Source of the DNA: a virus | Virus genome (UHGV): UHGV-0203597 | Length of the DNA stretch: 41,485 nt | Reading direction: 5' to 3' (one strand) | Shown: piece by piece, positions 1 through 15,327 of the stretch | How positions within the stretch are numbered: the stretch's first letter is position 1 | How the letters are laid out: each line of letters starts with the position of its first letter | The notes under the pieces: model-generated | What the model was told of the DNA's origin: nothing | Seen by the model: only the letters and a program-made list of their open reading frames with translations | Databases searched by the model: none | Translations under genes and position numbers: made by a program

Positions 1-36
1 GTGGATTGGTGCTGTTTTTCCATGATAGGGGTAATT

Positions 37-417
37 ATGAGAAAAGTATTTTTGATTTTTGGATTTATGCTTCTCGTTGGATGCCAGTCAGCTGCACAGT
101 TTGAAAGAAATATGCTTACGTGGCGCGGGCAGAGTATAGACGCAATGGTTCAGCAGTGGGGGTATCCTCAGGGAGAGCTTACATCTCCAGATGGAAACAG
201 AGTGTATGTTTACTCAAGCTCTGGTAGTTATAACGTACCACAAACCACAACGTATAATACTACGTCTAATCTAATTGGTAATACTATATATTCAAACACA
301 TACGCAACAACTGATGGCGGTTATACACTCCATTTCAGTTGCTCTGTTTACGTTGAGTTTGGTGCTGATAAGATTATTAAAAATGTTACATGGCGCGGTA
401 ATAATTGCGTTGCGTGA
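37..417 (+). CDS. Putative lipoprotein (moron; candidate superinfection-exclusion or lysogenic-conversion protein)
   Basis: ATG at 37 with AGGGG 6 nt upstream; signal peptide MRKVFLIFGFMLLVGC with lipobox LVGC; Ser/Thr/Tyr/Asn-rich mature part; AT-rich; no TTACC-N5-GGTAA site upstream; followed by hairpin terminator. Confidence 0.6.
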   Translation: MRKVFLIFGFMLLVGCQSAAQFERNMLTWRGQSIDAMVQQWGYPQGELTSPDGNRVYVYSSSGSYNVPQTTTYNTTSNLIGNTIYSNTYATTDGGYTLHFSCSVYVEFGADKIIKNVTWRGNNCVA

Positions 418-425
418 CATGTCAC
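414..425. repeat. 12-bp perfect palindrome GTGACATGTCAC, copy 1 of 3
   Basis: Overlaps the TGA stop of the lipoprotein gene; identical 12-mer at 22054-22065 and 24541-24552. Confidence 0.5.
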
Positions 426-426
426 A

Positions 427-450
427 GGCCGCTTTCGCGGCCTTGTTTTT
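427..450. terminator. Rho-independent terminator hairpin GGCCGC-TTTC-GCGGCC plus T-tract
   Basis: Perfect 6-bp GC stem, 4-nt loop, then TTGTTTTT on + strand; lies between convergent genes; same 18-mer repeated at 3783-3800. Confidence 0.6.
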
Positions 451-610
451 AACGAATGCCACCGCCACCCGGGCGGGAATCCGCAGAACGCCCACCGCAG
501 CGGGAGCCGTCAGCGGCAGTATCGCTGTCGTGCTGACAACGACCGGCAAAGGCCTGAGTTGAAGCTACCAGAGACAACAAAACGAACAGTGCAGCAAATG
601 CTTTTTTCAT
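449..610 (-). CDS. Small secreted peptide (53 aa, SPase I-type signal, two Cys in mature part)
   Basis: ATG at 610; MKKAFAALFVLLSLVASTQAFA then GRCQHDSDTAADGSRCGG...; last gene of the minus-strand operon after the YafO-like gene; weak RBS. Confidence 0.35.
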   Translation of the reverse strand: MKKAFAALFVLLSLVASTQAFAGRCQHDSDTAADGSRCGGRSADSRPGGGGIR

Positions 611-691
611 TGTGAAATTTCCATCTATAAACCACCTCAATGTGGCGTCAATGAGTGTAGCACTGACTTTTGTTTCGTCCATAAAAAACTA

Positions 692-1204
692 CTATGCAGG
701 CTTTTTGGATTTGTACGAATAATCCCACGGATAAACATTTCTACTAAGTGGAGCTGTATTCGTTCGTTCATGAAATAATTTTGTGAAATTCAATACGGAA
801 TCCATCCAAACTTTTGCGTTAGCTTTGGTGTGTGCGGGCGGGTCCCAATAAGCTAGTAAGGCTGCATCTCTTATTTCATTGACTGCATATATGAGATATG
901 CGTTACTGGTTGGTTTTGGCCTGTAATTTCCTTGTTCATCAATCAATCCATATGACCACTCATCCCAACACTGTTCAGTACATGAGTATGAATATGATGC
1001 ATATTCACCAATATTGACATGAACCTTTCTGAGATGGAAGCCTAATACTTCGTCTGGTCTTTCAAAAAGAGTATCTTTTCCCAGATCAGGATGATGACCA
1101 TGACGCCAGTGTTGTTTAAAAGCATCTTTTAGCGAAATCAGAAAGTCATCAGTTTTAAACTCACCAGTAGGTATAACCTTCCCGCTATACTCACTCAAAA
1201 ACAT
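692..1204 (-). CDS. YafO-family toxin-like protein (paralog 1)
   Basis: 170 aa; motifs HWRHGHHPDLGKDTLF, RKVHVNIG, YLIY, AALLAYWDPPAH recalled as matching E. coli YafO (RDGxLPDxFGRD, VAHIHL, LVYC, AWLLIAILKPEPH); 14-nt overlap with upstream gene. Confidence 0.5.
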   Translation of the reverse strand: MFLSEYSGKVIPTGEFKTDDFLISLKDAFKQHWRHGHHPDLGKDTLFERPDEVLGFHLRKVHVNIGEYASYSYSCTEQCWDEWSYGLIDEQGNYRPKPTSNAYLIYAVNEIRDAALLAYWDPPAHTKANAKVWMDSVLNFTKLFHERTNTAPLSRNVYPWDYSYKSKKPA

Positions 1205-1517
1205 CGAATTCCTCTTCCTTCATATGCGTTTCTAATGAGTTAAGCTGGCGGAAAGATATCTCTTTTGATTCTGCAGATGAGAGCTTTTTTATCCGCTTTA
1301 TATTCTTTGTGATAGGAATAGACATTGTATGCACATCAGCGGATGCTCTTGGCTTTGTGCTGATAAAAATATGGCGCAATGCCGCATTTTCACTATTGAA
1401 CGAGCCAATAGCTGATTTACGTGCTACAACCTTACCAGTAAAAATACGACTCTTGCTACGCTTTGCATGAGTTCCGCTTCTTACCGGACCTCTCATCACG
1501 AATCCAAGTTTTGTCAT
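1191..1517 (-). CDS. Small basic protein, putative cognate partner/antitoxin of YafO-like paralog 1 (no family recognised)
   Basis: 108 aa, Lys/Arg-rich with acidic C-terminus EEEFDVFE; GGAGA RBS; overlaps toxin-like gene. Confidence 0.4.
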   Translation of the reverse strand: MTKLGFVMRGPVRSGTHAKRSKSRIFTGKVVARKSAIGSFNSENAALRHIFISTKPRASADVHTMSIPITKNIKRIKKLSSAESKEISFRQLNSLETHMKEEEFDVFE

Positions 1518-1559
1518 CTTTAATCTCCGGTAAGTTACAGGTATAAAATAAAAACAGGT

Positions 1560-1574
1560 TTACCTTTAAGGTAA
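1560..1574. promoter_or_regulatory. TTACC-N5-GGTAA operator-like palindrome
   Basis: ttacctttaaggtaa, 43 nt upstream of the minus-strand ATG at 1517. Confidence 0.45.
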
Positions 1575-1640
1575 TATTACGCGAATCTACATCACATCGC
1601 CAATGATTATTTTAAAGGCACATCCCTGTGCCGCCGCTCG

Positions 1641-2336
1641 TCAGAAGAACCCTGCCTTGTCGTTGATGTACTCCGCGTGGGTCTGGATATCACGCAGGCA
1701 TTTGCTCACACCGACGATGTAGCAGAACATGGTGGTCAGCTCCGCCGCCGCGCCCGATACGTCGTGCCCGTCTTCCTGTAACTGGTTCAGCAGATTCATC
1801 AGCAGTGAGTTCTCCGTCAGGCCGAGAACACCAGACGGCGAGTGAATCAAACTGCGGTAGCCGGGCTTCAGTGGGGCGCTGTAGGTTTTGTTCTCTATCT
1901 TCATTGCCTGCATCACTGCTGATGCTGTGGCGTTGGCTACCTGGTCGGCAACCATCTTTATGCGTTCTTCCTGCGGGAGCGAGTTTTTAATGTAACTTCC
2001 GGTGCGGCGGATCTGAGGAAGAACCTCACCTGTAACCCATTTACGAAAGCGGTAGGGGATAGTGCCTGGTGTCACTGCGTCGCGGCAGCGGAGGATCAGT
2101 GTGTAGAGGCCTGACTCGGAGATGATGATCGATTCTTGCTCACCGCCAGGGGTGTCGGTTGAAGCGACGCCCTTCTCATCATCATCAAGTTTTCGAACAG
2201 CATCTCGATGGTTTGCTATGCCTATAGCCCGACAAACATCTGAAGCGATAAACCATGGCTCACCATTTATGACGATTACTCGTATATCGGCTTGGGATTC
2301 GAAAGAAAAAATGGACGTGCTTTTTGTAGCTGTCAT
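1641..2336 (-). CDS. BRO-N domain antirepressor-like protein with Ant-type C-terminal domain
   Basis: 231 aa; N-terminal motif PWFIASDVCRAIGI typical of BRO-N; C-terminal ~70 aa paralogous to the small protein at 3805-4062. Confidence 0.75.
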   Translation of the reverse strand: MTATKSTSIFSFESQADIRVIVINGEPWFIASDVCRAIGIANHRDAVRKLDDDEKGVASTDTPGGEQESIIISESGLYTLILRCRDAVTPGTIPYRFRKWVTGEVLPQIRRTGSYIKNSLPQEERIKMVADQVANATASAVMQAMKIENKTYSAPLKPGYRSLIHSPSGVLGLTENSLLMNLLNQLQEDGHDVSGAAAELTTMFCYIVGVSKCLRDIQTHAEYINDKAGFF

Positions 2337-2605
2337 AGTGGTTACCTTTTAGTCTGGTTAATCACCACTACCGACGCCAATCGGTTGGTGGTGAACTGTG
2401 CAGGGTTGGCGTAACCGGCTAAAAGGACCCGGCGCACCTTTCGGTGCCCCCACACAGCCCACCATAATACGAATGTGGCCGTGCTATACGCATAAAAAAA
2501 CCGCTTGCGCGGTGAATGCGCCTTTTAGTAATCCGGAACGCCAATCCCGGCACTGGATTTTGCCAGTGCCCGATTACTATGGCACAAGAGGAGTGCAATG
2601 TAAAT

Positions 2606-2620
2606 TTACCGCAAAGGTAA
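2606..2620. promoter_or_regulatory. TTACC-N5-GGTAA operator-like palindrome
   Basis: ttaccgcaaaggtaa in the 420-bp divergent intergenic region between the BRO-N gene and 2758-3285. Confidence 0.45.
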
Positions 2621-2730
2621 TGATAAATGCATAACTCACGTCATTTCAACCCTATGTGGTTTGATTGATCCCATTTCAGAAAATACCTGCCTATTTTTTT
2701 GCCAGTGAGCGTATACTTTCGATAGAATGT

Positions 2731-2745
2731 TTACCCTAAAGGTAG
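2731..2745. promoter_or_regulatory. TTACC-N5-GGTAg operator-like site (one mismatch)
   Basis: ttaccctaaaggtag, 13 nt upstream of the ATG at 2758. Confidence 0.35.
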
Positions 2746-2757
2746 TTGGGGGTGCCC

Positions 2758-3285
2758 ATGAACACGAAGAGAGTTACAGCGATGAGGCATAGACGCTTTG
2801 CCTTGAAAAGGCCTGAAAAAGAAAAAGAGCAAGAGATGGTGATTGAAGCAGCCGCTTATGCTGCAGCTATGGCAACTGCTGATGCGATTAGAAATTATGA
2901 AGAAGAGGATAATAAAAATTCCTATCGCATTTACTTATATGAGAGCCGTCACAGTGTTACAGACCATGAAGCATGCCTAAAAAAACAAGGGGAAGTATTC
3001 CACTGCAACCTTGCTGAGTACATTAGGAATGAAATGGAAAGGAATTTGGCTTTATCTCATTTTGGATACAAGAGTCAGGAAAGTGGTTTCGCTGGCTTTA
3101 AGGATAAAATTAACGAAAGGTGGCAACGTTTATACAAGCCACTTCAAGTTGATGAGAAAACTCATCAACTTGTTATGCATGAGGTCCCAAAGATGTCCGT
3201 AGAGAAATCCCATGCAATCTCGCGCAGGATGTTTGCACGCACTGCTGAAGACATGGCTCAGGAGCTCTACGACGATGCCGAATAA
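2758..3285 (+). CDS. Hypothetical charged helical protein, putative partner of YafO-like paralog 2
   Basis: 176 aa from ATG 2758 (alternative 2746); acidic C-terminus ELYDDAE; stop overlaps start of downstream toxin-like gene; unrelated to the 108-aa partner. Confidence 0.4.
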   Translation: MNTKRVTAMRHRRFALKRPEKEKEQEMVIEAAAYAAAMATADAIRNYEEEDNKNSYRIYLYESRHSVTDHEACLKKQGEVFHCNLAEYIRNEMERNLALSHFGYKSQESGFAGFKDKINERWQRLYKPLQVDEKTHQLVMHEVPKMSVEKSHAISRRMFARTAEDMAQELYDDAE

Positions 3286-3781
3286 ATTCCAGGGGTTGGT
3301 TCACCCTGGAATTTTTGGGAAGGACCCTGAGCTAATACCTATCAAAAACGCGTTCATAGATCACTGGCGCTACGGTCATCATAAGGATTTCGGAAAGGAC
3401 ACTCTGTTTCGAGATCCACCGAAAGAGATGCTGGAATATCACATACGCCACGTTCACTTAAACATCGGAAACTATACTGACAAGTTTGGTGAGAGCGGTA
3501 CGGAACAATGCTGGAAAAACTGGGCGTCTGGGAAGAAAGACAAGACCACTAACAAGCATAAAAAGATCCCAACCAGTGACGTGTATGTGATTTATCTGGT
3601 CACATCTGAACGCCATGCCTTCCTTCTGGATTATTGGGATGAACCAGCGCATAAGACAGTAGAAATTGACGAGCAGAAGCAAAAATTAGTTGTCGAGTGT
3701 GACAGAATTTTGCGGCTGAAAAAGTTAGAATCCATGCCGCGCGATGCAAGTTTGTGGGACCCAGAATTTTACGACTGTTAA
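3275..3781 (+). CDS. YafO-family toxin-like protein (paralog 2)
   Basis: 168 aa from MPNKF; motifs HWRYGHHKDFGKDTLF, RHVHLNIG, YVIY, AFLLDYWDEPAH align with paralog 1. Confidence 0.5.
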   Translation: MPNKFQGLVHPGIFGKDPELIPIKNAFIDHWRYGHHKDFGKDTLFRDPPKEMLEYHIRHVHLNIGNYTDKFGESGTEQCWKNWASGKKDKTTNKHKKIPTSDVYVIYLVTSERHAFLLDYWDEPAHKTVEIDEQKQKLVVECDRILRLKKLESMPRDASLWDPEFYDC

Positions 3782-3782
3782 T

Positions 3783-3808
3783 GGCCGCTTTCGCGGCCTT
3801 TTCTTTAT
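3783..3808. terminator. Bidirectional terminator hairpin GGCCGC-TTTC-GCGGCC plus T-tract (second copy)
   Basis: Same 18-mer as 427-444; between convergent genes ending at 3781 and 3805. Confidence 0.6.
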
Positions 3809-4062
3809 GTGGTTTGTTTTCGTAATTGTTCGGCACAATAGTCGAGATGTGTTTGCAGATCCTGCATAGACATCTGTGAGCTGGTGACGTAGTTAATCAG
3901 TGCAGTCAGTTCGGCAAGTGGGCCATCGACATTAAATCCATCCTTATCGAGATCCCGGAGTAATTTCATCAAGTGCGATCCCTCCACCAGTGACCTGACG
4001 CCTCCCGGCGTGTGAATCCTTTCGGTAAATCCGTCTTCCAGTGGATAGTGATACTGCTGCAT
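3805..4062 (-). CDS. Small Ant C-terminal-domain-like protein; candidate SOS-inducible antirepressor
   Basis: 85 aa from ATG 4062 (GGAGAAG RBS); paralogous to the C-terminus of the BRO-N protein; LexA box about 20 nt upstream. Confidence 0.5.
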   Translation of the reverse strand: MQQYHYPLEDGFTERIHTPGGVRSLVEGSHLMKLLRDLDKDGFNVDGPLAELTALINYVTSSQMSMQDLQTHLDYCAEQLRKQTT

Positions 4063-4081
4063 CTTATCTTCTCCATGCAAT

Positions 4082-4101
4082 AACTGTATATTTATACAGT
4101 A
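4082..4101. promoter_or_regulatory. LexA (SOS) box
   Basis: aaCTGTatatttatACAGta; minus-strand reading TACTGTATAAATATACAGTT matches consensus TACTGTATATATATACAGTA at 18/20. Confidence 0.6.
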
Positions 4102-4138
4102 GCAAATAATTTGTTTGCTATCCAGCACGTTTTGCAAA

Positions 4139-4153
4139 TTACCTGAAAGGTAA
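4139..4153. promoter_or_regulatory. TTACC-N5-GGTAA operator-like palindrome
   Basis: ttacctgaaaggtaa, identical to the site at 25529; between the LexA-box gene (minus) and the tailspike (plus). Confidence 0.45.
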
Positions 4154-4257
4154 TATCTATTCGTATTTACAGCCTTTCTATCCATATGTGGTTTTCCAGG
4201 TAATAGAATAACCAGATATGCGGCGCAACGGGTGCTGCGACTATCTGGAGATTTAAC

Positions 4258-6909
4258 ATGACGGTCTCAACCGAAGTTGACCACAACGAATACACCGGTA
4301 ACGGAGCTACGACATCATTTCCGTATACCTTCCGTATTTTCAAAAAATCCGACCTGGTTGTTCAGGTGTCTGACCTGAACGGGAACGTAACAGAATTGGT
4401 TCTGGATACTGACTACACAGTAACCAATGCTGGAGGATATAATGGCGGTAATGTAATTCTGTCGAAGGCGTTGGCTAACGGTTATCATATTTCTATATCA
4501 CGAGAGCTCCCGGTTACGCAGGATACTGATTTGCGTAATCAGGGTAAGTTCTTCGCTGAGGTACATGAAGACGCGTTCGATAAACTGACAATGCTTATTC
4601 AAAAGTGTTTTTCATGGATGAGGTTAGCACTTATAAAACCAAGCATTCTGGCTAACTATTATGATGCAAAAAATAATAAGATATCAAATCTAGCAAATGC
4701 CACTGACAGAAACGATGCTGTCAATAAAGGTTATGTTGATGATCTTTTTACTGGAGGTGTAACGCCTACACCTAACAGCGCTAAAAACGATATTTTTACA
4801 AATCACCAAAGAAAGATTGTAGCTACGATGCCGCTTCTTTTTCCTGAATATGATGCGATTATGGCTGCTAACCCGTCAGCAACTTATATGTATCCTCAAG
4901 GATTCTGCGTTAGCGAAGATTTGATATACATCACTTATCCATTTGAGCCTAAACAGACGAATAATGTCGTCGCAGTATTTAACATATCTGGTATTTATCA
5001 AGGTTATTTCTATGTTCAGGCTGGCGGCCCAGGCTTCGCTGCTGAAGGAATCGTGGTTACGTCAGACTATGGCCCCAAAAAAATGTTTGTTGGTCACACA
5101 AACGGAATACTGCGTGAATTTAATATGGAGGGGGCATTATACGGAAGCAATCTGCCTCTTGTACAAAACCATGATGTTGGATTATTCAACCAGTTCAGCT
5201 ACAGAAGAGGTATATGGCTCGTTGAGCAGAATGCGCCAGAAGTAGGACAGAAAATCACAAGAACTGTACTTGCAGTGTTCGACAGTGGTTTCAATCGCCT
5301 GTCAACTATAACGCTGCCGTTACATGATGTTGGGTATGTAACTAAAAGCACCTCACCTTATGCGCCTTATTTCAACAAGCGTCAGGGTATTGCGGTAGGT
5401 GATAACTACTTTGTCTGCGGCTATGGCGGCTTCATAGCTGATGGGGCAGGAAGCGCAGGATATAACGAATATCAGGGCAGCAAAGTTTTTAACCCTGACG
5501 GTACAAAGCGAACTGAATCAATGCTTCATCCTCAGGCCATGATGGATTTAATGAAAGCCGCAGGATTGAACGTCACTCGCATAGAAAATGAAGGCGTTTG
5601 TGTTTCTCAGGATGGAAAATCCATTTATTCACTTTACATTCATCAGGAAAGAACTGGCTCTGAACCTTACAATTCAGGTTTGGTTATTTTCGAAGATTTC
5701 TCCACTGATAAAGATGCTATCGATTTTACACCTGCATCCAGGCTTTACCGCGGATTTGATATCGATCACGCGAGCATTGGGGTATATCCCCGTAGTGCGA
5801 AGGGGATTGTTAACCCTGTAGATGGTACGTTGTTCACTAACATGACTGAAATTCTTCGCTATATGCAGGAGATGAGTCAGAAGGCATTTAATTTTTACAC
5901 AGGGACTGTCAGCATTGCTGATATATCTGGCGTGGCAATCCCTTCCAGCACATATGTTGAAATACTGAATGCGAATAATCAGACTTTTATAGTCAACTAT
6001 TATTCATCTGATAGTGGCATTAGTTATTTGGTTGCAACTAATCCTTCTGGTGACTTTGTATTTGTGCGCCAGCGACCGGCACAGTGGGCATCTAACTTAA
6101 CCATTCAGCAAAACGCAGATCCTGATACAAACCAATTAAACCGCATCACTGCATCATCATATGCCGGTGCAACTACAAACTCTCAGAAAATATTGGTCCT
6201 TGACCAGCAGGCTACAGCTAGCGCAAATAGCTTGGTATTGGGCGGTAGTTCTTCTGTGTTTAGGTCTGCCACCACGGTGGATATTGCATGCAACAGCGAC
6301 CCGACAGCATTGGGAGGAACCATACGCTGGCGGTTTTATGATACAGGTCTTCGCCCGTTTGCTGACAATACCTATAATTTTGGTCAGGCATCGTTTCGTA
6401 TTAAAGACGCCTACTTTGCAAATGCCCCAACCGTTTCATCAGATGCCACGCTGAAAACCAATCCCGAGGCAATATCAGATTTAAGTGAAATGCTTTCTTC
6501 TGATAGAGACAGCATTCTTGATGCCTGGGGCGATATTTCTGTTGTGGCGTATCGATGGCTCGACGCTATATCCATGAAGGGCGATGGTGCCAGATGGCAT
6601 TTTGGCGTCATGGCTCAGCAGGTAAGGGATGTATTCTTGGCGCACGGAATTGATGGAACCAGATTTGGCCTTCTTTGCTATGACGAGTGGGATGATATTT
6701 TTGAGCCGGTAATCGCGACTAAAGAGATTACCGATACGTCTGGTGAGTTGGTCACCGTCGAATATGACACCGGAGAACAGAGGCTGGTTAAAAAAGCGGG
6801 TAGTTCATGGGGTATACGGCCTGACCAGTGCGCTTGGCTTGAGGCTGCATATCAGCGCCGTCGATGCGATCGTATTGAAGAGCGACTCGAACTATTGGAA
6901 TCAAAATAA
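4258..6909 (+). CDS. Tailspike / tail fibre with T7 gp17-like N-terminal domain and C-terminal S74 intramolecular chaperone
   Basis: 883 aa; N-terminus resembles T7-type fibre anchor; C-terminus has RWHFGVMAQQV and GLLCYDEWDD recalled as S74 auto-processing chaperone motifs; central domain unassigned. Confidence 0.8.
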   Translation: MTVSTEVDHNEYTGNGATTSFPYTFRIFKKSDLVVQVSDLNGNVTELVLDTDYTVTNAGGYNGGNVILSKALANGYHISISRELPVTQDTDLRNQGKFFAEVHEDAFDKLTMLIQKCFSWMRLALIKPSILANYYDAKNNKISNLANATDRNDAVNKGYVDDLFTGGVTPTPNSAKNDIFTNHQRKIVATMPLLFPEYDAIMAANPSATYMYPQGFCVSEDLIYITYPFEPKQTNNVVAVFNISGIYQGYFYVQAGGPGFAAEGIVVTSDYGPKKMFVGHTNGILREFNMEGALYGSNLPLVQNHDVGLFNQFSYRRGIWLVEQNAPEVGQKITRTVLAVFDSGFNRLSTITLPLHDVGYVTKSTSPYAPYFNKRQGIAVGDNYFVCGYGGFIADGAGSAGYNEYQGSKVFNPDGTKRTESMLHPQAMMDLMKAAGLNVTRIENEGVCVSQDGKSIYSLYIHQERTGSEPYNSGLVIFEDFSTDKDAIDFTPASRLYRGFDIDHASIGVYPRSAKGIVNPVDGTLFTNMTEILRYMQEMSQKAFNFYTGTVSIADISGVAIPSSTYVEILNANNQTFIVNYYSSDSGISYLVATNPSGDFVFVRQRPAQWASNLTIQQNADPDTNQLNRITASSYAGATTNSQKILVLDQQATASANSLVLGGSSSVFRSATTVDIACNSDPTALGGTIRWRFYDTGLRPFADNTYNFGQASFRIKDAYFANAPTVSSDATLKTNPEAISDLSEMLSSDRDSILDAWGDISVVAYRWLDAISMKGDGARWHFGVMAQQVRDVFLAHGIDGTRFGLLCYDEWDDIFEPVIATKEITDTSGELVTVEYDTGEQRLVKKAGSSWGIRPDQCAWLEAAYQRRRCDRIEERLELLESK

Positions 6910-6997
6910 GACCAAATTTAGGTAATTATTATCCGTAAATGGTTTATTGTGTATGATGGACCTCATCTTCTAAGGGGGTTTTTATGCACAATAAACG

Positions 6998-7408
6998 GTG
7001 GTTACCATGAATGGCACGGTTACGGCGGATTCACTGAATCAAGGGTTAAGCTTGGGTGCGCTGGCCTCTGTCGTCTACGGCGTTCCGCCAGAGGTGGCTC
7101 TCGGTGCTCTGGCTGGTGCGGTAATATTTGTTACCTCTGCTGTAGAGTATCCTGTTCGTCGTCGTGTACTCTTGTCGATACTCAGCTTTCTTTGTGGTCT
7201 TCTCTTTTACAAACCAACAACATCAATTCTTATCGGAATAGCCAGCATGATACCTACCATCACGCAGGACTCTTTCGAGAAAGGGATTGTTTTCTCTGCT
7301 GGCGCATTCGTGTCAGCAATTGTCGCAGTGCGAATTGGTATATGGCTCTATCACCGTTCTGATAATCCACGCCAGTTAATTCCTGGGAGAAAAGGCGATG
7401 GTAACTAA
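6998..7408 (+). CDS. Multi-pass membrane protein, holin-like (about 4 TM segments)
   Basis: 136 aa hydrophobic; directly upstream of second holin-like gene and endolysin; start ambiguous (6998 or 7007). Confidence 0.45.
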   Translation: MVTMNGTVTADSLNQGLSLGALASVVYGVPPEVALGALAGAVIFVTSAVEYPVRRRVLLSILSFLCGLLFYKPTTSILIGIASMIPTITQDSFEKGIVFSAGAFVSAIVAVRIGIWLYHRSDNPRQLIPGRKGDGN

Positions 7409-7706
7409 TGAGCTTGTTTTGCTTATCACCAATGCAATTATTTGTACTGGCATAGCAATTCGCGTTGTCACATTCCGGCGTAACGGCTCTCAACATCGAA
7501 GATGGGGAGGGTGGCTTGCTTATTTCCTTATTGTTGCTGCGGCCAGTATTCCTGTTCGTGTCGCCTATGCAATCTGGTTACGTACGCCAATGGCTGTGGA
7601 TTTATCTGAGGTCATTATCAACGCTGTCATGCTTGCCGCGGTTATTAAAACACGCGGTAACGTTGTTCAGATTTTCAAAACATCGAGGTCTAAACATGGA
7701 GATTAA
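7398..7706 (+). CDS. Holin-like membrane protein (about 3 TM segments, charged C-terminus)
   Basis: 102 aa; overlaps endolysin start by 11 nt. Confidence 0.5.
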
Positions 7707-8325
7707 ACAATTCCAGCGAGCTGCTGGTATTAGCGAGGCTCTGGCCGCACGCTGGTTCTCGCATATAACTTCTGCGATGAAAGAGTTTGGTATCAGAAAA
7801 CCCGAAGATCAGGCAATGTTTATTGCTCAGGTCGGGCATGAGTCTGGTGGCTTCACCAGGTTGCAGGAGAATTTCAATTACAGCGTCACCGGACTGGCTA
7901 ACTTCGTTCGTGCCGGTCGTCTTACTCAGGGACAGGCTAACGCATTGGGTCGTCGTGCAGGCGAGCCACCATTGCCACCTGAGCGCCAGCGTGCGATTGC
8001 CAATCTGGTGTACAGCAAACGCATGGGGAACAATGCCTCTGGTGATGGCTGGAATTACCGTGGCCGCGGACTTATCCAGATTACCGGTTTGAATAACTAT
8101 CGTGATTGCGGAAACGGCCTGAAAGTGGACCTGCTGGAGAATCCTGAACTGTTGGCGCAGGACGAATACGCGGCTCGTAGCGCGGCGTGGTTCTTCTCCA
8201 GCAAAGGTTGCATGAAGTATACCGGCGATATTGCACGTGTAACTCTGATTATCAATGGTGGCAGGAATGGCATCGACGACCGGCGCGTGCGGTACATCAC
8301 TGCCAGTAAGGTGCTGGCGGTATGA
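7696..8325 (+). CDS. Endolysin, glycoside hydrolase family 19 (chitinase-like) type
   Basis: 210 aa from MEIKQ; motifs [12 protein letters not shown] and [12 protein letters not shown]; no N-terminal SAR segment. Confidence 0.8.
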
Positions 8326-8819
8326 TCTGGGCATTCGCAAAAGCATACCGGAAACAGTTGGTTGTCATGGCGATGCTTGCTGTTCTGGTCATATCAGGAG
8401 TTGTTGCCTGGAATGTGCATGGCAGCCGCCAGTACGATGCCGGGTATGCTCAGGCGAAGGAAGATCAGAAACAGGCTGATGATAAGTTAAGGTCACAGCG
8501 TGAGCAGGAGAAAACACAAATTGAACGTGAAGCACAATCCCGTATCGATGCGGCGCGTGCTGATGCTGAGTATGCTAATTCCGCTGCTGACAGCATGCGC
8601 GCCGAGCTTGACAAAACCAGGCGGCTCGCCGAACACTATACCGGATCTTTCCCCCCTGGCACGCCAGCCAGCAAGGTCATCGGTGTGCTCGCCGACATGC
8701 TTGAAGAAAGCAACCGAGTTTACAACGCAACAGCAGCTGAGGCTGAAAAGTATCGTATCGCAGGGGAATTCTGCGAGCAGCAATACGATTCACTGAAGAA
8801 GCAAAAATCGTGGCACTGA
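8322..8819 (+). CDS. Rz-like inner-membrane spanin
   Basis: 165 aa; N-terminal TM, coiled-coil-like periplasmic part; follows endolysin with ATGA overlap. Confidence 0.6.
8548..8796 (+). CDS. Rz1-like outer-membrane lipoprotein spanin embedded in +1 frame of Rz
   Basis: [17 protein letters not shown] with lipobox LTAC; Pro-rich mature part; entirely inside the Rz gene. Confidence 0.45.
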   Translation: MRRVLMLSMLIPLLTACAPSLTKPGGSPNTIPDLSPLARQPARSSVCSPTCLKKATEFTTQQQLRLKSIVSQGNSASSNTIH

Positions 8820-8969
8820 TTTCCGGTGACGGTATATAAAACGGTACGGTGAAAATCATGTTACAGAAAGTTGTTACCAGTCAATTGGTTATGCATGCCG
8901 TAAATAATTGAGTGGGAATGATTAACAGCTAACTCATAGCAACTCATTCCTATTCAGATACTAATTTAA

Positions 8970-14742: not shown

Positions 14743-15327
14743 TTATTGTTTGTTTTTTTCGTTCTGGTTGATGACAAATTCAATGTAACTTTCGATCTTT
14801 GCTTTCTCGGTTTCGGGTAACAATGCGTAGCGTGAGCGGTCATAGTTGATAGTCGCAGGGTCGTGCGGGTGAATCAGTAGTTCATATCCGTGACGCCCGA
14901 ATGCGGATGCAACATTCTCCAGGGTGGAAATGGAAACGCTGACCTCATTGTTTAACAGGCGGCTGATTGTCACCTGGGCGACGCCGGATGCGCGGTGAAG
15001 TTTTCCCTGAGTTGAAAGGTCGCGGCTTTCACTCATCCAGCGTTCCAGGTTGTGAGCTGCCAGCTGACCAATGTCGCTTGGGCCGACAGGCTGAAAACCT
15101 TCCTGAGAAAGCGAGCGATCGATATCAAGCCAGTTACGGGGTTTATTGGCGGCAGCTTCAATTTTTCGCGCAACCTGGTCGCCGATAACCTTCTTGCCAA
15201 GAGCCCAGCGGTTTACCAGATTTGCCTGAGTTCCAAGTTTTTCTGCCATCCGCGTCTGAACACCATTGAATTCACGGTCGATCAAGTCGTTGAGATTTTG
15301 CCTGCGGACGTCCTGGATACTTTTCAT
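14743..15327 (-). CDS. Prophage repressor, two HTH domains, no LexA-like autocleavage domain
   Basis: 194 aa; HTH-like segments near residues 25-45 and 105-130; no Ala-Gly/Ser-Lys protease module; flanked by operator palindromes on both sides. Confidence 0.6.
   Translation of the reverse strand: MKSIQDVRRQNLNDLIDREFNGVQTRMAEKLGTQANLVNRWALGKKVIGDQVARKIEAAANKPRNWLDIDRSLSQEGFQPVGPSDIGQLAAHNLERWMSESRDLSTQGKLHRASGVAQVTISRLLNNEVSVSISTLENVASAFGRHGYELLIHPHDPATINYDRSRYALLPETEKAKIESYIEFVINQNEKNKQ

Follow-up and report, generated by a model that had tools for sequence, protein, structure and literature searches.

Why does a temperate phage carry two related YafO-like genes, each preceded by a small gene, when the two small genes appear to have nothing in common? 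The question arises from UHGV-0203597, a 41,485-nt stretch of DNA (hereafter the window) that is the genome of a phiV10-like (Uetakevirus) temperate E. coli phage. The initial annotation had described two paralogous effectors with non-homologous upstream partners and had proposed either partner swapping or two specificities, for example with one partner acting as an antitoxin and the other as a regulator. The reading that we favor, with a probability of roughly two in three, is that two paralogous type II toxin–antitoxin (TA) modules, insulated from each other and equipped with modular antitoxins, lie side by side in this region. Our literature search turned up no publication on such YafO-like pairs in phages. 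The idea that the window beyond ~9 kb belongs to the E. coli chromosome, by analogy with strain 2/0, was rejected: the BLAST match to 2/0 covers only positions 412-8923, and the window outside this interval consists of phage early and structural genes.

Two overlapping gene pairs flank an antirepressor operon

Both modules lie in a variable region, with ejection-protein genes on one side and the tail-fibre gene on the other, and a P1-like C4-RNA/ant operon sits between module 1 and module 2. The genes and the control region of the ant operon are listed below.

692-1204, minus strand: effector 1, 170 aa, paralogue of effector 2 (ORF, BLASTP, PHROG)
1191-1517, minus strand: partner 1, putative antitoxin of module 1, 108 aa, phrog_5933 (ORF, PHROG)
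1641-2336, minus strand: Bro-N antirepressor (Ant), 231 aa, given for context (Pfam Bro-N E=2e-21; PHROG anti-repressor; PGAP "phage antirepressor Ant")
2384-2649, minus strand: control region of the ant operon (promoter scan, motif scan, Rfam)
2758-3285, plus strand: partner 2, putative antitoxin, 175 aa, phrog_9503 (ORF; PHROG E=4e-65)
3275-3781, plus strand: effector 2, 168 aa, divergent YafO-family/RelE-fold putative toxin (ORF)

The partner 2 gene encodes 175 aa, not the 176 aa first given; it overlaps the effector 2 gene by 11 nt from the ATG at 3275, and an AGGAG sequence lies 11 nt 5' of this ATG. Module 1 is arranged alike, with a 14-nt overlap between partner 1 and effector 1. A partner ORF is found upstream of the effector in 41/41 related loci, and the overlap measures 11 or 14 nt in all 38 loci of clades A–C. 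The two pairs thus show the layout of type II TA loci, i.e., small, adjacent, co-oriented and overlapping paired genes with the antitoxin gene first. A DNA-binding domain with autoregulation is common in type II antitoxins but not strictly defining of the class, and Pfam detected no HTH, RHH, AbrB or Phd/YefM domain in partner 1 or 2, including the Phd/YefM N-terminal domain. More broadly, neither these two partners nor five other partner types have a Pfam match above threshold. NCBIfam returned nothing useful for effectors or partners, and in PADLOC-DB 2.0 neither the effectors nor partner 1 were matched, while partner 2 gave weak, scattered matches only (E>=3e-4) that do not place it in a defence system.

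The effectors resemble YafO in sequence and RelE in fold

Effectors 1 and 2 share 46% identity over 150 aa (BLASTP, E=3e-38), identifying them as paralogues, and both match phrog_1651 (E=7e-46 and 2e-52). The statement that they align over all conserved motifs is borne out: columns F27, G40, H61, Y107 and H126, invariant in an alignment of 57 family members that includes bona fide PF13957 proteins, are present in both. Frameshifts, by which the initial annotation would have recognized non-functional duplicates, are absent from both effector genes.

The label “YafO-like” likewise stands. Against PF13957 in Pfam, the scores are 17.6 bits for effector 2 and 19.7 bits for effector 1, both under the gathering threshold of 25; P0005, a homologue at 66% identity, has a precomputed PF13957 match. 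A profile of the phage subfamily, searched against 1.84 billion proteins, retrieves P0110, P0112, P0117 and P0119 (E 6e-5 to 6e-4), which are bona fide PF13957 proteins with 52-87 bits on PF13957. The (nearly) invariant motifs FG[KR]D, HxH, TS[DN]xxxxY and AH are kept in the aligned bona fide proteins, and E. coli YafO itself shows the same motifs in alignment. Several matches were discarded as false positives, namely the large representatives P0097, P0098, P0102, P0103, P0108, P0113, P0115, P0116 and P0120 and the 149-aa P0121. They were rejected because they matched via a CW..W motif; RCC1-like repeats (...CWG.N..GQLGDG) were seen in the inspected sequence parts of P0102, P0116, P0120 and P0121.

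The effectors have a RelE/HigB-like alpha/beta fold, as expected of the RelE/ParE superfamily. Similarity to superfamily members of known structure, HigB2, HigB1, RelE, YafQ and YoeB (5mje, 7nbu, 1wmi, 4q2u and 2a6q), is remote, with 6-16% identity to the effector and matches that span about 60% of it. These structures were missed by Foldseek, which gave nothing significant for the effector in PDB and BFVD; the effector profile found no match at E<=10 among PDB sequences, and a profile search of genome contigs with the effector alignment found none either. Collectively, the profile, motifs and fold support the assignment of both effectors to a divergent YafO subfamily with a RelE/HigB fold.

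The predicted module promoters bear a palindrome found across the phage

Upstream of both modules, candidate control elements were located, and module 2 is followed by a terminator-like hairpin.

1560-1603, minus strand: control region of module 1, with operator-like TTACCTTTAAGGTAA at 1560-1574 (motif scan)
2699-2728, plus strand: predicted sigma-70-type promoter of module 2, with -35 TTGCCA at 2699-2704, an 18-nt spacer and -10 TAGAAT at 2723-2728 (consensus scan, 10/12)
2731-2745, no strand assigned: operator-like palindrome TTACCCTAAAGGTAG (TTACC-N5-GGTAA, 1 mismatch), 2 nt past the module 2 -10
3783-3806, plus strand: intrinsic terminator-like hairpin GGCCGCTTTCGCGGCC, followed by a T tract, ending module 2 (terminator scan)

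Other phage loci keep the promoter sequence of module 2 ahead of partners of the module 2 type. For module 1, hexamers read from the minus strand (-10-like TAATAT at 1579-1574 and -35-like TTGGCG at 1603-1598) reach 8/12 consensus matches, under the scan cut-off; the operator and the -10-like hexamer share 1 nt, and this layout is kept in loci L027-L041. A terminator-like hairpin was identified for module 2 only. The palindrome TTACC-N5-GGTAA is found at 15 places in the window, where 0.64 would be expected, is the sole palindrome at the module promoters, and stands on both sides of the CI-like repressor gene in the manner of OL/OR-like sites; in other loci its half-sites are kept and the spacer varies. 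The repressor has 194 aa and is encoded at 14743-15327 on the minus strand, and candidate sites for it include those at 1560, 2606, 2731 and 4139. Because the module promoters bear the palindrome that brackets the CI-like repressor gene, both modules are likely under phage-repressor control; repression would probably hold in the lysogen and give way when the early lytic genes are turned on. The ZX5 repressor, homologous to the one here, controls lysogeny (PMC9782041). Such repression would count against the TA reading, as the usual prophage TA roles of stabilisation and abortive infection fit less well if the modules are repressed in the lysogen.

The ant operon carries the palindrome as well, its minus-strand promoter (-35 at 2649-2644, -10 at 2625-2620) having an operator at 2606-2620. 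Rfam places in its control region an isrK-like RNA at 2494-2569 (72.3 bits, GA 50), a C4 antisense RNA at 2384-2469 (77.7 bits, GA 45), and a c4-a1b1-like target at 2530-2582 whose a1b1 score of 39 bits is under the GA of 46.7. In its RNA and antirepressor content the operon is like P1 immI (c4 antisense RNA - icd - ant, under C1 control) and Salmonella IsrK, with the C4 RNA, a1b1-like target, isrK-like RNA and ant all behind an operator-bearing promoter in the window. It differs from P1 in its setting: the phage here is a phiV10/epsilon15-type podovirus, and its repressor has a tandem HTH. P1 immI itself is not known to have YafO-like pairs on its flanks.

This regulatory setting feeds the alternative that survives best, namely that the pairs serve lytic-phase functions instead of acting as addiction or defence TA systems. 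The phage would then use a RelE-fold RNase at induction or infection, silenced by the repressor in the lysogen, to shut off host mRNA or counter a host system, and the upstream protein would be a timing inhibitor or chaperone. The OL/OR-like palindrome located where transcription of ant and of each module starts, the position of the modules on either side of the antirepressor operon, and the near restriction of the effector family to phiV10-like phages (76 representatives among 1.8 billion proteins, with 6 plasmid records) all speak for it. However, the gene order, overlap, small size, RelE fold and neutralising-type tail (below) are exactly those of type II TA loci, and a single operator may repress only partially. 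We regard lytic-phase use as unlikely; it differs from the two-module TA reading in biological role, and the molecular mechanism would be the same.

The partners appear to share a C-terminal tail that follows the effector

The reported lack of similarity between the partners is accurate for their N-terminal bodies, which are unrelated (~140 aa in partner 2 and ~75 aa in partner 1), and for BLASTP, which gives no alignment of partner 1 with partner 2. It fails for the last ~33 residues, where the two align without gaps, end to end.

3184-3282, plus strand: tail of partner 2, type A, residues 143-175, VPKMSVEKSHAISRRMFARTAEDMAQELYDDAE, proposed toxin-binding element (conservation)
1194-1292, minus strand: tail of partner 1, type C, residues 76-108, IKKLSSAESKEISFRQLNSLETHMKEEEFDVFE, putative homologue of the partner 2 tail

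When the two partner families were compared by hhalign, the aligned region was exactly the tails (P=0.0012, probability 19.5%). Tail HMMs were built in a leave-one-type-out fashion, i.e., without the type searched for. Among 1422 six-frame ORFs, the A+B HMM places the type-C partners next best (L039, E=8e-6; partner 1, E=0.0025), with the best unrelated ORF at E=0.37, and the B+C HMM finds partner 2 at E=0.0041. Composition-preserving shuffles gave P=0.01 for the tails of partners 1 and 2 and P<=0.0007 against the L039 variant. Tail A is connected to tail B through full-length homologues, P0033 and the L018 partner (E=2e-22), whose tails align to the final residue, and tails B and C have a common register (E=0.03). 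The tail motif, [VI]-[KP]-x-[ML]-[ST]-x3-[SA]-x2-[IL]-S-x-R... with the end [FY]-D-x2-E, also occurs in partners of the more distant effectors L042, L043, L044 and TL-2011b. These comparisons support homology of the two tails, the direct A-versus-C statistics being modest (P about 1e-2 to 1e-3) and the case running partly through type B and position. Homology of the partners under sensitive alignment, which the initial annotation had named as counting against its proposal, is thus seen for the tail.

One could argue that the partners are truly unrelated, that the inhibitors were recruited independently, and that the tails are alike through convergence or composition, as short acidic amphipathic helices. 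The blank BLASTP, the low hhalign probability and the shuffle P for the pair in the window are in keeping with this view, as are the short acidic C-termini common among antitoxins. Yet the similarity outlasts shuffles that preserve composition, with P<=0.0007 for several tail pairs, the HMMs pick the true upstream ORFs in both directions, and every tail alignment is ungapped in one register to the last residue. With tails A and B co-located in full-length homologues and the motif recurring beside more distant effectors, we consider independent recruitment improbable.

Tail A is nearly invariant among the 29 homologues of partner 2 found, including ones with unrelated N-terminal bodies, and its pN/pS of 0.22 at a pS of 0.59 indicates purifying selection despite many synonymous changes. 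The AF2 model of partner 2 is poor (pLDDT 60, pTM 0.20) and mostly helical; the tail, which ends in ...ELYDDAE, holds one of its two best-predicted parts (pLDDT ~80 at residues 141-160), with helices at 148-159 and 163-172.

Tail type and effector clade correspond one-to-one in 38/38 phage loci, and the bodies are shuffled: each effector clade has 2-4 body types, four kinds of body being found with tail A and two with tail B; one kind is joined to A in some partners and to B in others. In TL-2011b-type modules, the partner has 59 aa and is little more than the tail, preceded by a basic stretch. The tail is the likely specificity element. Partner swapping, as first proposed, describes the bodies well and does not extend to the tail. 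The suggestion of two specificities fits as two insulated cognate pairs, since the partners have homologous tails whose type goes with the effector clade, whereas a division of labor with one antitoxin and one regulator finds no support because both partners have the same kind of tail and the same gene arrangement. Very improbable, finally, is that one module is a decaying or non-functional duplicate or that one partner is purely a transcriptional regulator: most related phages do have one module only, not both, but the effectors are full length with all family-invariant residues, both partners keep the conserved tail and overlapping layout, most related phage contigs keep each module type with 96-100% protein identity, pN/pS is 0.44 for the effector and 0.22 for the tail, and a DNA-binding domain was found in neither partner.

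Relation to known toxin–antitoxin systems

In E. coli, yafNO has been established as a genuine TA locus, whose toxin YafO is related to RelE and acts as an mRNA interferase in a translation-dependent manner (PMC2814082). The phage modules are like YafN-YafO (in the dinB-yafN-yafO-yafP operon) in having the antitoxin gene first and the toxin gene directly after it, in the toxin motifs FG[KR]D, HxH, T[SN]D..LVY and AH, with a profile search linking the two groups, and in the acidic C-terminal end of the antitoxin (...DDDFNDFKE in YafN, ...EEEFDVFE in partner 1). They differ in that the phage effectors are ~35 aa longer, with ~20-25% identity to bona fide members and sub-threshold scores in Pfam; YafN has a Phd/YefM-type N-terminal domain, whereas the phage partners have no known domain; and yafNO is controlled by LexA and autoregulation, whereas the phage modules are apparently under a phage repressor operator. 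Searched with the tail HMMs, YafN gives E=10-48, and the best shuffle P values were 0.012 and 0.007 among 24 comparisons; an E. coli YafO scan found just 8 close loci, too few for a YafN tail profile. The pattern ..EI[ST].R....L..M.[DE][DE][DE]F.[DV]F.E, seen in YafN and the phage tails, is a lead only.

Evolutionary partner swapping in TA systems is established, as are modular antitoxins that neutralise through a short, exchangeable element at one terminus (“linear neutralisation”, of which Phd-C is an example) (PMC10440598, PMC8832971), and in this sense our findings are not surprising in kind. A close likeness is with the Phd-C helices of Phd and some PanA proteins, where, as here, a short two-helix C-terminal element appears to give neutralisation and specificity and bodies are swapped between lineages. 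In Panacea systems, however, it is the globular domain that stays constant and the toxins that vary, whereas in the phage modules the tail and the toxin family are constant and the body varies. Also in contrast to Panacea and Phd, the phage partners have no Panacea, Phd/YefM, HTH or RHH domain.

Proposed mechanism and implications

In the model that we propose, each module would be a bicistronic unit of promoter, operator, partner and overlapping effector. The effector would most likely be a translation-dependent mRNA endonuclease like YafO, judging from its family and fold. The partner would be a modular antitoxin, whose acidic two-helix tail may bind and neutralise the cognate effector and whose exchangeable body, which has no known domain, could serve regulation, stability or sensing. 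The co-variation of tail type with effector clade and the purifying selection on the tail lend such binding indirect support. Tail and effector would have diverged together (type A alongside effector 2, type C alongside effector 1), which makes cross-neutralisation between the two pairs improbable. Given that the start sites of ant and of the two modules all carry the palindrome, the modules would come on together with the early lytic genes.

A bolder extension, speculative and in our view rather unlikely, treats the tail as a portable neutralising peptide for YafO-type toxins and the bodies as input domains that time toxin release, making the modules together a repressor-gated toxin switch; it draws on the wiring of both modules to the repressor operator beside the antirepressor operon. 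If true, the switch would stay off in the lysogen and be thrown by induction or infection, a device for commitment or host shut-off with two insulated channels per phage and a role distinct from addiction and abortive infection.

For the protein families concerned, our analysis offers a function-level hypothesis for phrog_1651, phrog_9503 and phrog_5933, PHROG families without assigned function, and it covers the “hypothetical protein” partners that stand beside genes named YafO family toxins in RefSeq. With the tail motif as a guide, experiments on cross-neutralisation and tail swaps can be designed easily. The phage also provides a compact natural case of two paralogous TA pairs coexisting in one genome, with an antitoxin modularity in which the neutralising element would be constant and the body variable. 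Moreover, both modules appear to be wired to the operator of the prophage repressor and stand next to a C4-RNA/ant immunity operon, which suggests that they respond to the lysis-lysogeny switch; if true, this would bear on the purpose of phage-borne TA systems.

Two paralogous modules flank an antirepressor gene in a phiV10-type phage

The entire window is a circularly permuted phiV10/epsilon15-type podovirus genome of the genus Uetakevirus. Its region 2640-3800 is 100% identical, and 2358-8923 is 99.3% identical, to a prophage carried by E. coli strain 2/0. The match to this prophage is confined to 412-8923 and gives way beyond ~8923 to integrase and early genes, indicating a circular or permuted phage form rather than an integrated prophage with host flanks. 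The remaining window is ~97% identical to PAS61, phiv142-3, ZX5 and TL-2011b (integrase, early, replication and head genes), and the segment from the ejection-protein genes to the tail fibre varies among phiV10-type phages, which cover 13-53% of window 1-4300. Within this segment, two modules, each consisting of an effector and an upstream partner (a putative antitoxin), are arranged around the antirepressor gene ant as follows:

692-1204, minus: effector 1, 170 aa, paralogue of effector 2
1191-1517, minus: partner 1, 108 aa, overlapping the effector 1 ORF by 14 nt
1641-2336, minus: Bro-N antirepressor (ant), 231 aa, between modules 1 and 2
2758-3285, plus: partner 2, 175 aa, overlapping the effector 2 ORF by 11 nt
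3275-3781, plus: effector 2, 168 aa
3805-4062, minus: 85-aa ORF related to the antirepressor C-terminus
4258: start of the tail-fibre gene

The coordinates of the initial annotation are correct, except that partner 2 has 175 and not 176 residues. Two further small ORFs adjoin the modules. An ORF directly downstream of effector 1 (449-682, minus) has a signal-peptide-like N-terminus (MKKAFAALFVLLSLVASTQAFA) and hits phrog_3117 and phrog_14503 “membrane associated protein”; it may share a transcript with module 1. The 85-aa ORF beside the tail fibre shares ~40% identity with the last ~80 residues of the Bro-N antirepressor, and both proteins match phrog_450; it is a stand-alone version of the Ant C-terminal domain and has an operator-like site of its own at 4139.

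The effectors are divergent, putative YafO-type toxins

The two effectors are 46% identical over 150 residues (E = 3e-38), and both match phrog_1651; the duplicated module noticed earlier is real and not a chance resemblance. Direct Pfam matches to YafO_toxin (PF13957) are sub-threshold (17.6 and 19.7 bits versus a cut-off of 25), and a precomputed PF13957 hit is present on a 66%-identical homologue. An exhaustive search of 1.84 billion representatives with a profile of ten subfamily members returned no more than 76 proteins at E ≤ 1e-3; the most remote of them include 131-144-aa proteins scoring 52-87 bits on PF13957, bearing out the description “YafO-like”. In a 57-sequence alignment covering the phage subfamily and the PF13957-scoring proteins, F27, G40, H61, Y107 and H126 are invariant and D42, P49, W80 and S101 nearly so; these columns correspond to the E. 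coli YafO motifs FG[KR]D, HxH, TS[DN]xxxxY and AH, common to both effectors. Foldseek searches of PDB and BFVD and a sequence search of PDB gave no match, showing that the relationship is distant. YafO itself, which YafN neutralises, has been shown by experiment to be a RelE-related, translation-dependent mRNA interferase (PMC2814082). The effectors thus constitute a longer, divergent RelE-fold subfamily of YafO-type toxins, for which catalytic activity is predicted.

Ten multi-stretch matches of the effector profile (P0097, P0098, P0102, P0103, P0108, P0113, P0115, P0116, P0120 and P0121; 149 to 3067 aa) were rejected as fused toxin domains, being CW..W-motif false positives; where the sequence was read (P0102, P0116, P0120 and P0121), it contains RCC1-like repeats (…CWG.N..GQLGDG…).

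The partners share a C-terminal tail on unrelated bodies

No Pfam, NCBIfam or meaningful PADLOC match was obtained for either partner; partner 2 falls in phrog_9503 and partner 1 in phrog_5933, both of unknown function. The initial annotation held the two partners to be dissimilar. BLASTP indeed yields no alignment between them and their N-terminal bodies are unrelated, but they share a homologous C-terminal tail. Among 29 aligned homologues of partner 2, conservation is confined to the last ~38 residues, VMREVPKMSVEKSHAISRRMFARTAEDMAQELYDDAE, which are almost invariant, and in P0032-P0039 the N-terminal 100+ residues are unrelated, yet the tail is kept. The partner 1 family likewise conserves its C-terminal ~33 residues, plus an N-terminal MTKLGFVMRG motif. 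The two tails align ungapped to the last residue (VPKMSVEKSHAISRRMFARTAEDMAQELYDDAE in partner 2, IKKLSSAESKEISFRQLNSLETHMKEEEFDVFE in partner 1). The AF2 model of partner 2 is poor overall (pLDDT 60) but builds the tail as two helices (148-159 and 163-172); at residues 141-160 it reaches a pLDDT of ~80, equalled only by a helix around 31-40.

Several comparisons bear on tail homology. Alignment of the two families with hhalign recovers exactly the 34 tail columns (P = E = 0.0012), with a database-calibrated probability of only 19.5%. An upstream partner ORF is found in 41/41 IMG/VR loci encoding effector homologues, and the tails fall into type A (effector-2-like), type B, type C (effector-1-like) and three singletons. 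When 1422 six-frame ORFs from the window and 13 loci were searched with an A+B tail HMM, type-C partners ranked next after the training families (locus L039, E = 8e-6; window partner 1, E = 0.0025), followed by the L043 and L042 partners, the best unrelated ORF having E = 0.37; a reciprocal B+C HMM found all type-A partners (E = 0.003-0.004). Against 1500 composition-preserving shuffles, Smith-Waterman scores give P = 0.01 for the window tail pair and P ≤ 0.0007 for A versus C (L039), B versus C (L039), A versus D and C versus D. The tail-A protein P0033 and the tail-B partner of L018 are full-length homologues (36% identity, E = 2e-22) with both tails in register to the C-terminus, and tails A and B are therefore positionally orthologous; tails B and C align in the same register (E = 0.03). 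The tail is conserved as protein, and not as a side-effect of the effector ribosome-binding site: its 32 codons outside the gene overlap have pS = 0.59 versus pN = 0.13 (ratio 0.22). Collectively, we conclude that the partners have a homologous C-terminal module in common, carried on unrelated N-terminal bodies.

Tail type follows effector clade

Tail type matches effector clade one-to-one in 38/38 loci (14 A, 9 B and 15 C). The bodies, by contrast, are shuffled: tail A is found on four body types and tail B on two, the “MH[RQ]TK[RK]AGP” body being common to both tails. The partner swapping proposed earlier hence applies to the bodies but not to the tails. In TL-2011b (locus L002, 2293-2992, minus), L010 and L017, the module-1 position is taken by a third YafO-like paralogue (31-35% identical), which also occurs in L043; its partner has only 59 aa, a basic N-terminal stretch followed by the conserved tail (...VKVTMTKDHASRVSRAFFDSRNNKENYEFVCVAE). 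This pattern is what would be expected of a tail that binds the toxin and determines specificity, with the body as an accessory, and the shared tail most probably does the neutralising. The suggestion that one partner is an antitoxin and the other a regulator finds no support, both partners having the tail. The pattern corresponds to the “linear neutralisation” reported for Phd-C and some PanA antitoxins, which works through terminal elements that can be exchanged (PMC10440598). The YafN C-terminus (...EEITRRAEQYLNDMTDDDFNDFKE) resembles the phage tails suggestively by eye, though not at a statistically significant level.

The effector subfamily is small and largely confined to phiV10-like phages, with relatives in six plasmid records. 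Most related phages carry one module only; A-type and C-type modules occur together in the window, E. coli 2/0 and loci L005 and L015, and A-type and TL-2011b-type modules are combined in other phages.

Control elements probably link the modules to the prophage repressor

The control elements around the modules and the repressor gene are:

1560-1574: palindrome, at the -10 of the module 1 promoter
2384-2582, minus: ant leader
2606-2620: palindrome, at the -10 of the leftward ant promoter
2699-2728: sigma-70-type promoter of module 2 (TTGCCA, 18 nt, TAGAAT)
2731-2745: palindrome TTACCCTAAAGGTAG of module 2, 2 nt past the promoter
3783-3798: terminator-like hairpin of module 2, directly after the effector 2 stop
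4139-4153: palindrome, upstream of the 85-aa ORF and tail fibre
14609 and 14671: palindromes on the leftward-operon side of the repressor gene
14743-15327, minus: tandem-HTH, CI-like repressor, 194 aa
15383, ~15403 (degenerate, by eye) and 15431: palindromes in the repressor/cro-like intergenic region

The palindrome, TTACC-N5-GGTAA, has 15 copies in the window versus 0.64 expected and at most 4 in shuffles (starts 1560, 2606, 2731, 4139, 9057, 14609, 14671, 15383, 15431, 15768, 17708, 17770, 22330, 22348 and 25529), and a description of it was not found in the literature searched. Copies bracket the repressor gene like OL/OR operators and also lie at the -10/+1 of the ant promoter and of both module promoters. 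In other loci the half-sites in front of the partner genes are kept, but the 5-nt spacer varies. Experiments on phage ZX5 have identified its homologous repressor as the key determinant of lysogeny (PMC9782041). The palindrome is probably the operator of the phage repressor, and we infer that both modules, like ant, would be repressed in the lysogen.

The repressor has two HTH regions, a sub-threshold YdaS/Cro-like match (residues 21-61; 21 bits versus a cut-off of 30) and HTH_3 (residues 106-147). It is of the tandem-HTH kind rather than a LexA-like CI, which would carry a peptidase domain. Since this domain is missing, induction may depend on the antirepressor instead of repressor self-cleavage. 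The ant leader matches the Rfam models for C4 antisense RNA (77.7 bits) and the Hfq-binding RNA isrK (72.3 bits), with a c4 a1b1 target below threshold (39 bits), which together make this a P1-type immI operon. The window thus holds, in a phiV10-like podovirus, a counterpart of the P1 immI control region with modules 1 and 2 on either side. A 16-nt hairpin (GGCCGCTTTCGCGGCC) followed by a T tract is present twice, at 427-442 (after a 138-aa ORF, 1-417) and at 3783-3798 (after effector 2), and has the look of a terminator cassette used repeatedly to border inserted gene blocks.

RefSeq/PGAP annotates the two effectors of the E. coli 2/0 prophage as “type II toxin-antitoxin system YafO family toxin” and leaves their two partners as “hypothetical protein”. 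By sequence, the system is a YafO/RelE-fold toxin, the half already recognised by RefSeq, paired with a putative modular, non-Phd antitoxin. Beyond this existing annotation, our analysis adds a tail motif that co-varies one-to-one with effector clade and the shuffling of N-terminal bodies, together with the probable wiring of the modules to the prophage repressor, beside the C4/ant operon.
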